Shown in pieces: positions 31,711 through 40,618 of a DNA stretch of 64,000 nt (the first letter of the stretch is position 1; the number at the start of each line of letters is the position of its first letter). The translations under genes and the position numbers were made by a program. The DNA is from an uncultured archaeon (GTDB taxonomy: Archaea; Asgardarchaeota; Thorarchaeia; Thorarchaeales; Thorarchaeaceae): contig CAZSWP010000005.1 of NCBI GenBank assembly GCA_964610875.1, positions 37,728-101,727 of the forward strand, given 5' to 3'. The notes under the pieces were generated by a model, which worked only from the letters and a program-made list of their open reading frames with translations, made no database searches and had not been told where the DNA came from.

Positions 31711-32905
31711 GAACTCTCTTCATATCATTCTCAATTCCTTCAAGCCTTCTTACCAAGTCTTCTAATCTCTGTGTGACATTTCTAATCCTAACATCAATTT
31801 GACTTGATCTCGTTCGATCGTGATGTGTTTGATATGAGGATTTACTAAGGACAAGATTTTCTAGTCTCTCCAACCTATCAAGTAATCCGAGTATATCAAC
31901 TTCTTTCATAATTTTCTGAATAGATGTAATCTTTTCTTCAAGAGCAGGTGATTCAGTATATACTGCTTGCTTTTCCTTCTCTCTTTCCTTTCTTACGACA
32001 ACTTTTGGTTCAATTGCTTGAGAGGGTATTTCTTCAGATGATTTAGCCCAAAGGGGAAGCAGTAATGCTGATGATAATTTTTCTATTCTATTATGTGCGT
32101 ATACTCCGAAGAATGCAACACCATTTGGGCGATTCCAGAGAATAATCTCAGTTCTATTGCTTTTCATCAATAAACAAGCTGCGACTAACTCTTTTGAATG
32201 TCGTTCACCGACCACGGAGGTAAGACTTTCTGTAAATAACAATCCGAAGATTGGAGAGTGCTTCAAATTCTCTGTGCGAACTTGGGATTCATCATCATCT
32301 TCAGATTTTTTTACAGCTTCTCGTAACCAAGTACGTGGCACCAGTTTTTGGGTGGGAATGTCCACTACTAGACCTTCAGTAATATCACCATTGGCAATAT
32401 CAGATCGGATAGTTTCAATGTAATCAATATTGGGTTCATCAAAATCAGTTGAAATATCTTTTCCCATTTTATACTGCAATAAAAGGGTAACAATTTCATG
32501 CGAAGTCAATCCATCACTAATTATAATCATAAAGTAAAGGAAAGGTTTACCAGATTTTCTTCTCGCAAAGAGTGTATATTTTTTGTTTTGACTGCCTTGA
32601 GGCCCAAGGATTGCCATTGCATAGTTACCCTCTGTAGAAATATCACGGTCTATGAATGCTTTTAGGAGCCTTTGAGTCGGTTGTATATATTCAGCCTGAT
32701 TGCTTTTTGAAGAAACTGACCCTTTTATGTCGACCACATCAAAATGTTCCTCTATTTTTTCGACTTTATTACCTAGCTCAATTTCTCCCACTATGTATCC
32801 CAATATTTTCCCCGAATCCTTGAGTGATTTCATTTTTGAAATTGTATCATTCACTATAATTGACCCTCCGAGATAATTTTGAGAATATAGATGTAACAAT
32901 TTCAT
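31697..32905 (-). CDS. Hypothetical protein with C-terminal coiled coil
   Basis: 402-aa ORF; LLDRLERLENL, LEDLVRRLEGIE; true start probably near 32850-32832. Confidence 0.7.
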   Translation of the reverse strand: MKLLHLYSQNYLGGSIIVNDTISKMKSLKDSGKILGYIVGEIELGNKVEKIEEHFDVVDIKGSVSSKSNQAEYIQPTQRLLKAFIDRDISTEGNYAMAILGPQGSQNKKYTLFARRKSGKPFLYFMIIISDGLTSHEIVTLLLQYKMGKDISTDFDEPNIDYIETIRSDIANGDITEGLVVDIPTQKLVPRTWLREAVKKSEDDDESQVRTENLKHSPIFGLLFTESLTSVVGERHSKELVAACLLMKSNRTEIILWNRPNGVAFFGVYAHNRIEKLSSALLLPLWAKSSEEIPSQAIEPKVVVRKEREKEKQAVYTESPALEEKITSIQKIMKEVDILGLLDRLERLENLVLSKSSYQTHHDRTRSSQIDVRIRNVTQRLEDLVRRLEGIENDMKRVLGEE

Positions 32906-33992
32906 TGGTTTCCGAATCAGTACTAGCTCTAGTTACACTGCCATTCATAACTGCACCTATTCCATCTAGAAGAGGTGAATCAACATTATCACCAAGAGAA
33001 ATACACCAAAAGGAAACAAAACCGCACAGGTCTGATTCCTTTAGAAGTTTAATAGGATTGGGACCAGAAGAATATGCACCATTGGAAATTAGAATCATTA
33101 ACACATCGTATCCATTTTCTTCGCACATCAGGTTGGTGTACTCTATTGCTGCAACCAGAGCTCTTCCAGGATTTGCAGGACCTATTGAAATTTCATCCGA
33201 TTTTGTATGAAGCCAATTTTCATAAGCAGCAATTATTGAACTATCAGATATTTGTGTGAGTATTGTTTTTTCACCGGTATCAGTAGAATACGTTTCAAAG
33301 AACACAGGCTCACTAGAATAGATAGCTGAAGCAAAGAGAGAATATTCCTGTTCAGAATGGAGGAACCGAATGATTTTTCCGGTTAGGTCACAAATCCAGT
33401 TTTCTACAGGATTCTCAATGCTACCTTCGGATTTTGCCTTCTTAATGATAGAAACATCAACGAGTGTGAAGAGATTGATTTTTCTCTTGCTCTTTGCAAT
33501 GGCGGGGACGAGTTCAACACGTTGAAGTTCGCTCCATTTGATTTTTGCAAAATGCTTTGATTTTGGGACAAGACTATCAATTACTAATTTAATGCCAAGT
33601 GAATCGAATTCAAGAACATCTCCCTCTCTTAGAATCAATCCATCTAACAAAGGCTTGAGATCTCGAATTCTCTGAGATAAAGCTTCAGCAATATCTTGAC
33701 TATCAATACCCTTGGTAGAAACCACTGAGAGAACAGCTTCTCTACAATTTACAATATCACCATCAACGATGGAGAGACTAACAAGTGAATCATCTGAACA
33801 GCCAATTCTTTGCTGTATTGAATTATCTAGTATGATTATGTCAGGAGGCACTCTATCTGATTGTTTCAAAGTAGTAATAGCATGTTTTCCATTGAACTCC
33901 ACAAAAACAGGACCTTCCTCAAAACCATTGGGAATCGATTTGACAAAGCTGATTCCTCTTTGATTACGTCCATTTTTGCATTGAACTTTCAA
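32847..33992 (-). CDS. Cdc48-N-like domain fused to degenerate vWA (paralog of 10676-11971)
   Basis: IIILDNSIQQRIGCSDDSLVSL, LDGLILREGD; NLFTLVDVS, NPGRAL, MILISNGAYSSGPNPIKLLKE, CISLG. Confidence 0.7.
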   Translation of the reverse strand: MKVQCKNGRNQRGISFVKSIPNGFEEGPVFVEFNGKHAITTLKQSDRVPPDIIILDNSIQQRIGCSDDSLVSLSIVDGDIVNCREAVLSVVSTKGIDSQDIAEALSQRIRDLKPLLDGLILREGDVLEFDSLGIKLVIDSLVPKSKHFAKIKWSELQRVELVPAIAKSKRKINLFTLVDVSIIKKAKSEGSIENPVENWICDLTGKIIRFLHSEQEYSLFASAIYSSEPVFFETYSTDTGEKTILTQISDSSIIAAYENWLHTKSDEISIGPANPGRALVAAIEYTNLMCEENGYDVLMILISNGAYSSGPNPIKLLKESDLCGFVSFWCISLGDNVDSPLLDGIGAVMNGSVTRASTDSETNEIVTSIFSKLSRRVNYSE

Positions 33993-34003
33993 CTGATTTA
34001 CCC

Positions 34004-35137
34004 CTAGTAGAGTCGTGTTGTGTATATCTTGGATGAAATAGACTTTGAACCATAGAATATCTCAACTTTAATTGAAGCCTTTCCTTTGAATTCAGTCATA
34101 GGGACCAATCGGAATGTTATTTCCCTGTCAGTTTTAGGTCCAATATCATGATGCTCACTTGCTATCTCAGAAACATCTTCTTCAGTAATTAGATTAGCAA
34201 CCAATCGTATTCCCATTAATGTTGCACTCGGATTTCTTACTCTTATGACGTAATCAAATGCCTTACCTACAATGATGGCATCCGGAATATGACTCATCTC
34301 AATTTCTAATTCCATTTGACTACTTGTTAACGGCTGACCTTTTGGCCATCGTGCAATTTTACCTAACTCCAACAACCGAGAGAGTGATGTTTTCAAGCTT
34401 CGTAATTCCATATTCAGCTCTGATGCTGCTGTTGCCATGTCAAACGACCCATCGTTTGCTTCATAGAACTGTAAAACCCTGCGGTCATCAGCTATTAAAT
34501 CACTCACTCCTTCTAAGATTTTTAGTATCGCTTGTGGAAGCTGGGATGCTTCACTCAATGAATAGTACTTGCCATTATCAACTGCTTCAGAAATCTCTCT
34601 GAAAGAGGTTTCAACAAGTGGATTGCAACCACATACAAAAATGAAAGCAGTATCACCATGATCTGATTTCATGGCTCGGACCTCATCTCGAGGATCATAT
34701 CCCTTTGGGCAACCATTTGGAAAATAGTCATCACCCAATTGATTGTATTCATTCCCGTGTGGTGGAGCATCACCAACAAGTAGAAGAACTTTGTATGCAT
34801 CCTTGTCCCATGAAAGTTTCACTCGAGCATCATGCAATCCATCAGCAACGGCTTCAGGTGTGTCTCCACCTTCTGATGGCTTTAGTCTAGATATTACCTT
34901 ATGTACATCTTTTATTTTCTCGGTGAAATCAAATATTCTGGTCACATAGGTTCTATCTTGAGGTGGATGGTCTCTATATGAAACAATTCCAAATCTGATA
35001 GTCAGACCTGTAGTTTTTGATACAATTTTATCAACTATTCTGAAGAGCGAGTCTTTCACAGCATTAATGTCGTCTTTCATGGATCCAGTTGTGTCAACCA
35101 CAAATGCAACATCGAGTTTCGCTTTCTGTAACGGAAT
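34004..35137 (-). CDS. vWA-domain protein with winged-helix and C-terminal Ig-like domains
   Basis: LDVAFVVDTTGSM, FGIVSYRDH, GGDTPEA, LSW, LVGDAPPHG; the first vWA strand lies upstream of the GTG at 35101. Confidence 0.8.
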   Translation of the reverse strand: MPLQKAKLDVAFVVDTTGSMKDDINAVKDSLFRIVDKIVSKTTGLTIRFGIVSYRDHPPQDRTYVTRIFDFTEKIKDVHKVISRLKPSEGGDTPEAVADGLHDARVKLSWDKDAYKVLLLVGDAPPHGNEYNQLGDDYFPNGCPKGYDPRDEVRAMKSDHGDTAFIFVCGCNPLVETSFREISEAVDNGKYYSLSEASQLPQAILKILEGVSDLIADDRRVLQFYEANDGSFDMATAASELNMELRSLKTSLSRLLELGKIARWPKGQPLTSSQMELEIEMSHIPDAIIVGKAFDYVIRVRNPSATLMGIRLVANLITEEDVSEIASEHHDIGPKTDREITFRLVPMTEFKGKASIKVEIFYGSKSISSKIYTTRLY

Positions 35138-35629: not shown

Positions 35630-36187
35630 TCACAACCTCTGTAAACTTTTGATCAGCGACCGATTTTCATCAGACTCGATTTCAGTTGGATCTACTACCA
35701 TCCCAGATTCATGTGTTTCTATAACTACTTCAACACCTGAATCAGCTACCTTCTTAAAACCTCGTGAAGAAGTAGCACGAACTGTTAATGTCCGAGTGTC
35801 AAATTCTGTCTTTCCACTAGCCTCAACAGCTTGTGTATCAGTTCTGATTTTTGATTTTGCAACTCGTAGTTGTTCCTTTGTTTCGGCCAACTGAATTTGT
35901 AAAGTTTTTCTTGATGCTTTTTCTTCTGCAAATTGCTGTTTGATATCTTCGTATTCAGTAACAGCAACGAAATCTTTGGTTTTATCAATCCATGTAACTG
36001 TAGTACCATTGAATCTACGCTTTGTTGTTACTTGGTTAAGAGCTCTAAGAATAGCTATTACATCATACACTCGTCTTTTCGGTACTCCTAGAGTTTCAGC
36101 TAACTGATCACTCCTAATACCCTCTTCATTTGACTCTTTAAGCATACGAATGGCTTGTCTAGCCAGATTTACCAGCTTCAAATGCAC
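35630..36187 (-). CDS. E2F/DP-like winged-helix transcription factor
   Basis: LAETLGVPKRRVYDVIAILRALNQV matches the E2F/DP RRxYD signature; followed by a coiled coil and a beta-rich tail. Confidence 0.75.
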   Translation of the reverse strand: MHLKLVNLARQAIRMLKESNEEGIRSDQLAETLGVPKRRVYDVIAILRALNQVTTKRRFNGTTVTWIDKTKDFVAVTEYEDIKQQFAEEKASRKTLQIQLAETKEQLRVAKSKIRTDTQAVEASGKTEFDTRTLTVRATSSRGFKKVADSGVEVVIETHESGMVVDPTEIESDENRSLIKSLQRL

Positions 36188-36464
36188 ACCCCACTAGGTT
36201 CCGAAAATAACCTCGACAAAGAGGTTCCTAATTTATCTACCTTAGGTTCTATTTTAGTGTTTGTGTTATGAGTTGCGATTTTTCGAGATTGAATCCGTTT
36301 TCGAAAAACCGAAATAACGATTATTAGTGATTTCTTTCGATTTATGGAAATCCTCTTCCAGAAATGAGAGAGATTTCGATATTCAGTACTACCGACAATT
36401 TCATAACGAAGAACAAAAGTCCTCTGACTCAGACTTCAACCCTTCAATGGGGAGTGACAATTTC

Positions 36465-37796
36465 ATGAGTCGGAAGAAAGTTATAATTTTAGGCGCAGCT
36501 GGAAGAGATTTCCACAATTTCAATACTCATTTCCGCGACAACGAGGATTATGAGGTTGTGGCATTCACAGCTGAACAGATTCCAGGTATTGGCGATAGAA
36601 TTTACCCTCCAGAACTCTCTGGAAAGCTCTATCCTAAAGGCATTAAGATTTATCCACAAGGAGACTTACCTAAGCTTATCAAAGAACATGACATTGAACA
36701 ATGTATTCTTGCTTATTCAGATTTATCTCATGATTATGTGGGACATATCATTGCTTGGGTAAACTCACTTGGCGTTGATCTCAGATTAATGGGACCTAAG
36801 ACTACCTACATTAAGAGTAAAAAACCTGTTATTGCGGTCTGTGCAGTTAGAACAGGATGTGGCAAGAGCCAAACATCTCGTCGGGTCAATCAGATACTGG
36901 TAGATATGGGTTTCAAGCCTGTTAATATCAGACACCCAATGCCATATGATCCAGATTTAACCACTCAGATCGCTCAGAGATATGAAAAAGTAGAAGATAT
37001 GGACAAATACAATTGCACAATAGAAGAGCGTGAAGAATACGAACCAATAATCAATATGGGAGTTATTCTTTATGCTGGTGTCGACTATGGGAAAATTATC
37101 GAGCAGGCTGAGAAGGAAGCAGATGTGATTACATGGGATGGTGGTAATAATGACTTTCCATTCTATAAACCAGATTTGCTAATAGTAATAGCAGATCCGC
37201 ATAGACCTGGGCATGAAATCAGCTATTATCCAGGAGAAACAAATCTGCGAATGGCCGATGTTGTGATAATAAACAAGATTGATACAGCAGATTATGAGGA
37301 TGTCGAAGAAGTAAGAGAGAACATTCTCGAAGTAAACCCAAATGCAATAATTATCGATGCAGCATCTCCTGTCGGAATTGCAGACATGTCAGTCATTAAG
37401 AACAAACGCGTTCTTATAGTAGAAGATGGTCCTACAGTTACCCATGGAGAAATGCCTTACGGGGCAGGATACATCGCCTCAAGAAAGGCAGGAGCCACCA
37501 TTATTGACCCACGACCATTTGCAGTAGGCAGTATCGTTCATACATTTGAGAAGTATACACATCTTGAAGCGGTACTTCCAGCAATGGGATATGGACAAGA
37601 ACAGATGAACGAGCTTGAGAAGACAATCAATGCGGCAGATGTTGATGCCGTTGTGATTGGAACTCCTATCGATCTTGCCAAGCTTATCAAAATCAACAAG
37701 CCAAATACTCGTATCAGATATGACCTCCAAGAGATTGGAAAACCAGATCTTGAAGATGTCCTGAAAGAATTTGTTGAGAAACACAAACTCAAGTGA
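36465..37796 (+). CDS. COG2403-type P-loop protein (cyclic 2,3-diphosphoglycerate synthetase / arginine synthetase-like)
   Basis: ILGAAGRDFHNFN, AVRTGCGKSQ, RHPMPY, TIEEREEYE, WDGGNND, VEDGPT; start at MSRKK. Confidence 0.85.
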   Translation: MSRKKVIILGAAGRDFHNFNTHFRDNEDYEVVAFTAEQIPGIGDRIYPPELSGKLYPKGIKIYPQGDLPKLIKEHDIEQCILAYSDLSHDYVGHIIAWVNSLGVDLRLMGPKTTYIKSKKPVIAVCAVRTGCGKSQTSRRVNQILVDMGFKPVNIRHPMPYDPDLTTQIAQRYEKVEDMDKYNCTIEEREEYEPIINMGVILYAGVDYGKIIEQAEKEADVITWDGGNNDFPFYKPDLLIVIADPHRPGHEISYYPGETNLRMADVVIINKIDTADYEDVEEVRENILEVNPNAIIIDAASPVGIADMSVIKNKRVLIVEDGPTVTHGEMPYGAGYIASRKAGATIIDPRPFAVGSIVHTFEKYTHLEAVLPAMGYGQEQMNELEKTINAADVDAVVIGTPIDLAKLIKINKPNTRIRYDLQEIGKPDLEDVLKEFVEKHKLK

Positions 37797-38842: not shown

Positions 38843-40435
38843 TTAGGCAGGTTTTGGACGAACATCTGCTATCTCCATGAATTTCATCCCGCCAGCCTTC
38901 TCTATCAGTTCTTCAAAGGGTAGTATGAAGACCCCAGGAGTGACTTCTGTACTCGTCTTTGTCATTTTCTGGACCTGAAGTATCAAAGATGAATAATCAC
39001 CATTTACCGGACCACGTGGAGCGATATAGAGATTTAGAACATCCATGCTATATGGATCACTCATATCTTCCTTTGCAACTTCTATCTGCAATTCTTCTAT
39101 TTCAGATAGCGATAACAGATCAGAACGGAGTGCGGTAAGGTTGACCGTGGCACCTTTAATTTTCTTCTCAGCAAGCCCCATAACTTCAATTTGTGCTTCA
39201 GCGTCATTTGTTCTACCAATATCCCAGAAGAATGGTCCATCCATTCCACAAATCGGGCACTTCCCACGTTCCTGATGGGATGCTACATCTCCTAATAAGA
39301 ATCCTTCAAAGATGGAACCGGCACCATCAAGGTGGAACAAGCAAACATGACCGGGTTCATCATCTCCTACGAAGTCATAGGTGCCATCATCATTCAATGC
39401 AACTAATTCAAAACTTAATACAAGTGGAGATACATTGTGGTAAGGTCCTTTCCGCTCACATTGAACTGCGAATGAAATCTTACTCTCTGATGATGCATAT
39501 CCTCCAACAGAGTGTACTTCCTTTGCCCCTTTATCTGTGAGTGTTTCAATCATGTCATCAAGAACGGGGTCGTAGATTTTCTCACCTGCTAGAAGCAACA
39601 CAATCCTGTCAGGTGCAGAATACTCCTTTTCAGCCATTGCACGGAAGAATCTGTTACGTAGATAGCTGGGCATTCCAGCAAATGCATTTACTTTAAAGAG
39701 ATTAGCCATATCTACAAGTTTGTCACTAGGAATAGCTCCTCCTGCACTTGTTGCTACGTAGAATTTTGACATCTGCTTGAGACCCATGTCAACTGCATGC
39801 CATCCTAGATGAGGTGCATAAGGGAACAGGTTCATACTTGATACTTCATAATCAGTCCCAGAAAAATAATCAACAGCCATCTGTCCAACCTTTACACAAT
39901 TCTTGTAGAGCATCTCATTATCATATCTAGTAAGGAAAACCGGTGCTGGCATTCCTGATGCACGTCCAGAAGATAGCCAGAATTGTAGTGGTGCATATTG
40001 ATGAGTCAGTTTATTTTTGAGACGCTCCATAGCAGCGCCACCACCAATTTTGGTCTTTACACGAATACCATTGTTTCTGATGAATTTGTAAAGTTCAGAA
40101 TTCCCAGATTTTTTAGCATGTGTCATTAAATTCGATACAATATCTGCAGGAGGTCTTTCTTTATCATCGACCTGTGATGGATTCAAGACAAACTGCCGTA
40201 GATTGTCTTTGTAATCCGTCTTTCGTACTAAAGGAATCTTATACCTAGCCCAGTCTTCGATACAGGTGATATTGTATGGGTCTACATTTTGTTCCTTGAA
40301 CAAACGCCTATAGTACGGATGATTTGGCCATACTTGGTATCTGATAAAGGCTCTAAACTTCTTATCTTGGAGCTCTTTGATCTCCCTATGATTGGTACGT
40401 TTTAATTCTTCAAAAGTAAATGTCTGTTTGACCAT
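38843..40435 (-). CDS. Phenylacetate-CoA-ligase-like adenylate-forming enzyme
   Basis: HPYYRRLF, IPLVRK, SSGRASG, LAGEK, GYASSE, LLGD, GR..IKGATV; start at MVKQTF. Confidence 0.75.
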   Translation of the reverse strand: MVKQTFTFEELKRTNHREIKELQDKKFRAFIRYQVWPNHPYYRRLFKEQNVDPYNITCIEDWARYKIPLVRKTDYKDNLRQFVLNPSQVDDKERPPADIVSNLMTHAKKSGNSELYKFIRNNGIRVKTKIGGGAAMERLKNKLTHQYAPLQFWLSSGRASGMPAPVFLTRYDNEMLYKNCVKVGQMAVDYFSGTDYEVSSMNLFPYAPHLGWHAVDMGLKQMSKFYVATSAGGAIPSDKLVDMANLFKVNAFAGMPSYLRNRFFRAMAEKEYSAPDRIVLLLAGEKIYDPVLDDMIETLTDKGAKEVHSVGGYASSESKISFAVQCERKGPYHNVSPLVLSFELVALNDDGTYDFVGDDEPGHVCLFHLDGAGSIFEGFLLGDVASHQERGKCPICGMDGPFFWDIGRTNDAEAQIEVMGLAEKKIKGATVNLTALRSDLLSLSEIEELQIEVAKEDMSDPYSMDVLNLYIAPRGPVNGDYSSLILQVQKMTKTSTEVTPGVFILPFEELIEKAGGMKFMEIADVRPKPA

Positions 40436-40618
40436 CTTTATTGCACCCCAAAGCGTTTCACAACGTCGATTCGCTGTCTTTTCGCGAATAATAAACATTC
40501 CGAGTTGATGTTATATTATGCCTGTAACACATTTCCTCAATAGCCAGTAGAAAGTCATATAGGTATTGAAATCGCATTTGTGAAATAGTTACTTTGTAGA
40601 ATTTGGAGGAAACCAGCG

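Follow-up and report, generated by a model that had tools for sequence, protein, structure and literature searches.

In eukaryotes, the genes of S phase are under the master control of E2F/DP, the origin of which belongs to the question of eukaryogenesis. The window analysed here, a stretch of 64,000 nucleotides from an uncultured Thorarchaeial archaeon (G000:C5:37728-101727; the source genome, G000, comprises 3.75 Mb in 124 contigs and is 95% complete), carries a gene whose product an earlier note had described as an E2F/DP-like transcription factor with a DNA-binding domain, a coiled coil and a marked box. The locus thus raises the question of how much of this architecture the archaeal protein has, and which DNA and which genes such a protein would act upon.

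The E2F-like gene occupies positions 35630..36187 of the window on the minus strand, stop codon included. The open reading frame is real, and every string quoted in the earlier note was found in its translation: LAETLGVPKRRVYDVIAILRALNQV at residues 29-53, TVTWID at residues 63-68 and RTLTVRATSS...VADSGVEVVIETHESGMVV at residues 132-165. The product has 185 amino acids if translated from a GTG at 36187, two codons downstream of an in-frame TAG, and 183 amino acids if translated from a TTG at 36181. The latter start yields a protein that begins with MKLV... and has the modal length and N-terminus of its homologues, the full-length members of which (NCBI: Candidatus Thorarchaeota) are 54-67% identical to it over 99% of the length and mostly contain 183 amino acids. 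Database entry P0002 has 171 amino acids and begins at Met15, a start that would deprive the DNA-binding domain of its helix 1.

The winged-helix DNA-binding domain (residues 5-67; 35987..36175, minus strand) is identified by Pfam, AF2 and PDB sequence matches. Pfam E2F_TDP (PF02319) matches these residues with 39.3 bits, the curated cut-off being 25.7, and an E-value of 5.4e-10 (41.7 bits at the locus in a six-frame search of the genome), and it is the sole family above its cut-off; HTH_11 (24.9 bits) and TrmB (16.1 bits) both fall under theirs, and a scan of the protein against NCBIfam gave no match. The recognition helix carries RRVYD (residues 38-42; 36062..36076, minus strand), which alignments equate with the RRxYD signature, and the wing carries a tryptophan, W66 (35990..35992, minus strand). 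Residues R38, R39, Y41, D42 and W66 are invariant in an alignment of 31 Thorarchaeota homologues (A1); in a second alignment of 25 diverse Asgard relatives (A2), R38, R39, D42 and W66 are again invariant and Y41 is nearly so.

[quoted passage not shown] A search of 1.84 billion representatives with the same profile returned 92 proteins, archaeal relatives first, and the first matches outside the archaeal family, from E ~6e-9, were proteins that look like eukaryotic E2Fs; all ten of those scanned with Pfam carry both E2F_TDP and E2F_CC-MB. The winged helix was modelled confidently by AF2 (pLDDT ~88-92). As fold searches with the full-length model (Foldseek, VIA-align) returned generic winged-helix matches only, with no E2F chain among the best rows of this very common fold, family membership rests on sequence. 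By that measure, the DNA-binding domain is a true E2F/DP-family winged helix whose likeness to E2F/DP greatly exceeds what chance would produce, and the part of the earlier description that concerned this domain, its RRxYD signature and its wing tryptophan was borne out: E2F_TDP, and not TrmB or a generic winged-helix family, is its best match.

The family itself is not new, and the statement of the earlier note that E2F-like domains had been noted in Asgard surveys proved to be correct. Asgard E2F/DP homologues (arCOG02749) were described by Eme et al. (2023, Nature 618:992, Supplementary Information 4.1.5), whose tables label the arCOG02749 cluster 'E2F/DP homolog', who remarked on the conserved base-contacting residues and according to whom the Asgard proteins have no dimerisation domain. 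Their sequence file contains near-identical Thorarchaeota proteins of ~183 amino acids with a matching build and tail, as well as short Kariarchaeaceae forms. Eme et al. credit the first mention of Asgard E2F homologues to de Mendoza & Sebe-Pedros (2019), and a 2024 review (PMC7617429) repeats it; a search of the literature for E2F in Thorarchaeota or among eukaryotic signature proteins returned nothing further. The E2F-like gene is a Thorarchaeial member of this published family, with which it shares E2F_TDP as the sole recognised domain, the conserved RRxYD and the length of ~183 amino acids typical of Thorarchaeota. The heptad helix, the conserved β module and the candidate DNA boxes described below add detail to the family and do not make the protein a different kind.

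Within Asgard archaea, E2F_TDP exceeds its cut-off in 88 of 201 genomes, with a patchy distribution by family (38/43 in family 1 and 0/61 in families 5 and 9 together), and it was found in none of 14 well-known prokaryote genomes used as controls. The source genome has one E2F_TDP locus. Among 61 genomes from the same family, the domain was matched in 54, and 53 of these have one copy of it; the two matches in the remaining genome, G055, are fragments on two contigs.

The surroundings of the gene are conserved as well. Across 29 genomes, three neighbours recur at a distance of at most 1.5 kb: a convergent cyclophilin-like gene (PF04126; 35246-35626, plus strand) in 28, and a VWA-domain gene (34004-35101, minus strand) and a divergent gene of 489 amino acids (36327-37796, plus strand), for which a partial cobW/HypB P-loop match is all that was found, in 27 each. 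This may reflect either inherited synteny or a functional link. The E2F-like gene and the divergent cobW-like gene share an intergenic region (36188..36326) that contains the promoter of the former and has no GCGC box. Pfam at E<=0.001 matches neither of two further open reading frames, of 381 amino acids (32847-33992, minus strand) and 551 amino acids (38843-40498, minus strand); the first adjoins the VWA gene, but in 29 relatives it is not among the neighbours of the E2F-like gene at up to 1.5 kb.

Which DNA the protein reads can be approached through the sites known for eukaryotic E2Fs, for which TTTSGCGCS is the textbook consensus and thymidylate synthase a classical target. In the source genome, TTTGGCGCC precedes the ATG of the thymidylate synthase gene (TIGR03283 equivalog, 207 bits; G000:C29:1249-1869, minus strand) by ~105 nt. 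We examined orthologous loci from 30 genomes representing 10 genera of the same family, in which the thymidylate synthase proteins are 72-80% identical, searching the 300 nt upstream of the gene for the strict pattern TTSGCGCS and a weaker form. The strict box is present in 26 of the 30 upstream regions, the weak form in 28 and a GCGC core with a T-rich flank in all 30, compared to three box matches in the remaining 94.7 kb of these loci; because the 30 genomes are relatives, such counts overstate independence. The boxes occur in both orientations, at positions −68 to −169, within flanks that are otherwise unalignable. The consensus of the 30 sites is (A/T)TTGGCGC(G/C), the flanks of which are somewhat biased since the sites were oriented by their likeness to the E2F consensus. 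Across the source genome, intergenic DNA contains eight occurrences of TTTSGCGCS vs an expected 2.7, and coding DNA is not enriched in it.

Two controls were treated in the same way. Upstream of the E2F-like gene itself, both the strict and the weak box are absent from all 30 regions, and the rest of these loci contain one match in 89 kb; as there is also no GCGC in 36188-36326, autoregulation via an E2F-type box was rejected. A Rad51-family paralogue, which was considered as a target on account of TTTGGCGCC 50 nt upstream of it in the source genome, has the strict box in 1/30 and the weak form in 3/30 regions, with 13 matches scattered over the remaining 97.6 kb, mostly in coding sequence; its box, present in one genome of the 30, is not conserved, and we attribute it to chance or to a strain-specific site.

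The source genome encodes a ThyX-type thymidylate synthase too (G000:C2:47808-48326; PF02511, E=1.3e-43). It follows the preceding gene after a short spacer without a box, so that the E2F-type box is found at the ThyA-type gene only. In the Asgard sample, the ThyA type (TIGR03283) is present in 37 of 43 genomes of the Thorarchaeota family vs three elsewhere.

A second promoter with a conserved box belongs to a gene of 204 amino acids (G000:C13:14734-15345; locus L015:235-846, plus strand), whose product has no sequence match in Pfam, NCBIfam or the PDB. One copy of it was found in 39 of 41 genomes and in each of 43 sampled genomes of the family, and it is detectable in 114 of the 201 Asgard genomes. 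In all 30 promoters of this gene, a conserved TATA-like element is followed by a GCGC core at a distance of 10-20 nt, although the placement of the box with respect to the true TATA box is ambiguous and would fit activation as well as repression; the strict TTSGCGCS is present in 14. Neither the strict nor the weak box was found at homologues of the 204-aa gene in families that lack the factor (0/24) or in the factor-bearing families 3, 6, 12 and 19 (0/13), and family 2 has one weak site. Phylum-wide co-occurrence at this gene is therefore uninformative, the box being absent with and without the factor, and its lack in other factor-bearing families means that any such wiring extends no further than the Thorarchaeota order. 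Two loci from a single genus of the factor-bearing family 12 (L163 and L164, in G099 and G152) carry TTTCCCGCGGAG / TTTCCCGCGG 21 nt before the start estimated for the homologue of the 204-aa gene; TTTCCCGCGGAG is another classical variant of the E2F site.

Several other box sites were noted in the source genome. An EMC3/TMCO1-like membrane-insertase gene has two upstream E2F-type boxes, GGCGCGAAT and TTTCGCGCGAG, 50 nt apart (G000:C38:34170 and 34222; locus L007), and single boxes lie upstream of the genes for CDC48, an Arf-like small GTPase, archease, an H+-pyrophosphatase, an SdhA-like protein and an Alg14-like protein. A 243-aa gene on contig C92 that also has a box was dropped, as the gene is present in 3 of 41 genomes.

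The boxes are tied to the E2F-like protein by motif identity, and another factor could bind them. We regard it as somewhat unlikely, and yet the most serious of the alternatives, that the GCGC boxes belong to such a regulator and that the E2F-like protein has sites and a regulon of its own. This reading would explain why a perfect TTTGGCGCGGAA box is kept in G013, a genome in which no E2F_TDP gene was detected, why the factor's own gene is boxless and why the orthologous gene lacks the box in other E2F-bearing Asgard families. G013 is only 91% complete, however, and the box is the textbook E2F consensus while the base-contacting RRxYD residues of the protein are invariant. Furthermore, there is no GCGC in the 360 nt upstream of the thymidylate synthase homologue in three non-Thorarchaeota Asgard genomes without E2F_TDP, which represent two lineages, both AT-rich; this absence fits a link between the box and the factor.

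The part of the protein that follows the winged helix bears on how it would occupy such sites. Residues 76-117 (35837..35962, minus strand) form a long amphipathic heptad helix, a probable coiled coil, that AF2 modelled on A1 as a single helix of 42 residues with a pLDDT of 93-95. In one heptad register, core hydrophobics make up 61% of the a/d positions vs 12% elsewhere, and Pro/Gly content is 0.5%. The coiled coil proposed earlier is thus supported indirectly, by the single modelled helix and its heptad periodicity, and a lone amphipathic helix of this length would imply self-association or a partner.

The helix is followed by a conserved β module (residues 126-166; 35690..35812, minus strand) with strands at residues 135-138, 144-149, 154-158 and 163-166 and, in Thorarchaeota-type proteins only, by a short C-terminal helix (residues 174-183; 35639..35668, minus strand). 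Residues 120-170 have a pLDDT of ~50 in the full-length AF2 monomer. When residues 112-185 were modelled alone on an alignment of 88 family tails (A3), the mean pLDDT was 82, reaching 91-94 in the core, and the model displayed four strands and the terminal helix. The final 60 residues are conserved across Thorarchaeota, and a shorter core, F.T..L.I......I..V...G.EV.IE....G..IEP, is kept in distant Asgard relatives of 160-185 amino acids. In still shorter Asgard forms of 113-137 amino acids, those of Kariarchaeaceae included, the β module directly follows the winged helix and there is no coiled coil, which argues that the β module, and not a unit of the CC-MB kind, is the constant companion of the winged helix. 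This four-stranded module is specific to the Asgard E2F/DP-homologue family. In a separate subgroup of archaeal E2F_TDP-like proteins with 152 amino acids (of the KKRRVYDVLDVL type; P0168, P0169, P0190 and a Hermodarchaeia entry), the C-terminal half is different and non-homologous; within Asgard archaea, the winged helix has consequently become linked to at least two kinds of tail.

A prediction with two copies of residues 70-185 gave an ipSAE of 0.34-0.35 vs 0.00 in three controls, a value that lies under the 0.42 mark and counts neither for nor against a homodimer; homodimerisation of the E2F-like protein is thus a conjecture. The protein ends 19 residues past the β module, which, together with the single E2F_TDP gene in the genome, fits a factor that works without a DP partner.

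Self-association might involve the helix alone, with the β module serving as a sensor or partner-binding domain for a small ligand or a protein. We consider this role of the module unlikely. Its retention in the short helix-less forms speaks for a function of its own, and it folds confidently as a single chain; at the same time, it resembles no known ligand-binding fold or family, and its ~35 ordered residues are few for a ligand pocket.

A further alternative develops the reading of the earlier note. The helix and the β module would be a true homologue of the E2F/DP coiled-coil and marked-box unit, and the protein would represent the E2F/DP ancestor in minimal but complete form, pairing with itself in a symmetric marked-box sandwich. 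The order of domains is the same, with a winged helix, a heptad helix of ~40 residues and a β-rich module; single HMMER alignments of three eukaryotic E2Fs (P0182, P0189 and P0198) span residues 4-177, 5-158 and 4-149 of the query; and the low confidence of the tail in the monomer model would fit a fold that is completed only in the dimer. Sequence comparisons of the tail itself, however, argue against such homology. Neither the query nor any of the 88 family tails has a Pfam match to E2F_CC-MB or DP (PF08781) at E<=10. In hhalign comparisons with ten eukaryotic CC-MB domains confirmed by Pfam, the archaeal β module aligned to their marked-box portion with a probability of 0.1% over six columns, and the whole tail aligned to the CC-MB domains with probabilities of 2.3% and 0.14% (the latter over one column) in two runs. 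The only weak signal, a probability of 21% for helix against helix, is what coiled-coil composition would give. A PDB profile search with the A3 tail returned no E2F or DP chain and nothing relevant. Short relatives, including those of Kariarchaeaceae, moreover join the winged helix to the β module without a coiled coil. Homology of the β module or the tail to the E2F marked box is hence improbable, and so is the complete ancestor built upon it. Fold searches with the tail model (Foldseek, VIA-align wide) returned no match of any kind, an outcome that, for a small domain modelled as a monomer, speaks neither for nor against a marked-box fold. From the architecture proposed earlier, the DNA-binding domain and the conserved β tail stand, the heptad helix stands on the indirect grounds given above and the marked-box identity of the tail found no support.

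Among known regulators, typical E2F1-6 (PF02319 and PF16421) share with the archaeal protein the homologous DNA-binding domain, its RRxYD and wing tryptophan and the succession of this domain, a helix and a β-rich region, and their consensus equals the candidate site TTTSGCGCS. They differ from the archaeal protein in that the latter has no detectable CC-MB homology and no DP partner gene in its genome, would have no room for a pocket-protein-binding tail and has ~185 amino acids vs 350-450 in E2Fs. DP1 and DP2 (PF02319 and PF08781) share the spelling RRVYD and a homologous winged helix, to which the match is weak (DP2, E=0.31), but the archaeal protein has no Pfam match to the DP domain. The atypical E2F7 and E2F8, of which E2F8 is the best PDB match, likewise have no CC-MB and need no DP, but each of their chains contains two tandem DNA-binding domains instead of one domain with a helix and a β module. 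Archaeal TrmB/MarR regulators differ in the signature of their recognition helix and in their C-terminal domains, and their scores are below threshold. That the protein is a generic archaeal winged-helix regulator of the TrmB, MarR or HTH_11 type with RRxYD by chance, which the weak HTH_11 and TrmB scores and the name TrmB given to some homologues in JGI annotation would favour, is very improbable considering (i) that E2F_TDP alone exceeds its curated cut-off, (ii) that the long matches of the family profile are all E2F-like, every one of the ten scanned being an E2F, (iii) that the best PDB sequence matches are E2F8 and E2F4, and (iv) that E2F_TDP is missing from the 14 well-known prokaryote genomes.

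Returning to the E2F-type reading of the locus, we propose the following model. The winged helix would read GCGC-core boxes of the E2F type (TTTSGCGCS), an assignment made from motif and residue conservation. On these boxes, the protein would be self-associated, probably as a dimer, and held together by the helix and/or the β module. No DP-like partner would take part, as the genome has a single gene of this kind. Thymidylate synthase and the conserved 204-aa gene are among the likely targets in Thorarchaeaceae. Taken as a whole, an E2F/DP-family winged helix that reads GCGC-core boxes in self-associated form and has thymidylate synthase among its targets is the best explanation of the locus and probably holds. 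The more specific proposition, that a self-pairing Asgard E2F-type factor composed of this helix and a lineage-specific β module controls dTMP synthesis via TTTSGCGC boxes, is one we advance tentatively.

As a gene annotation, the locus is an ordinary member of a known family. Asgard homologues have so far been published as a DNA-binding domain only, with no assigned function. Beyond this literature, our analysis adds the conserved, family-specific tail of helix and β module and the conserved boxes of the E2F type in the promoters of thymidylate synthase and of one further gene. The conserved C-terminal module qualifies the published statement that these proteins have no dimerisation domain; it is no ground for calling the module a marked box, and the further step of regarding the helix and the β module as the precursor of the E2F/DP coiled-coil and marked-box unit is much less likely. 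If the proposed control of dTMP synthesis is true, regulation of a DNA-precursor gene through an E2F box exists in archaea, and it would represent either ancestral wiring of the kind that later served G1/S control or a striking convergence.
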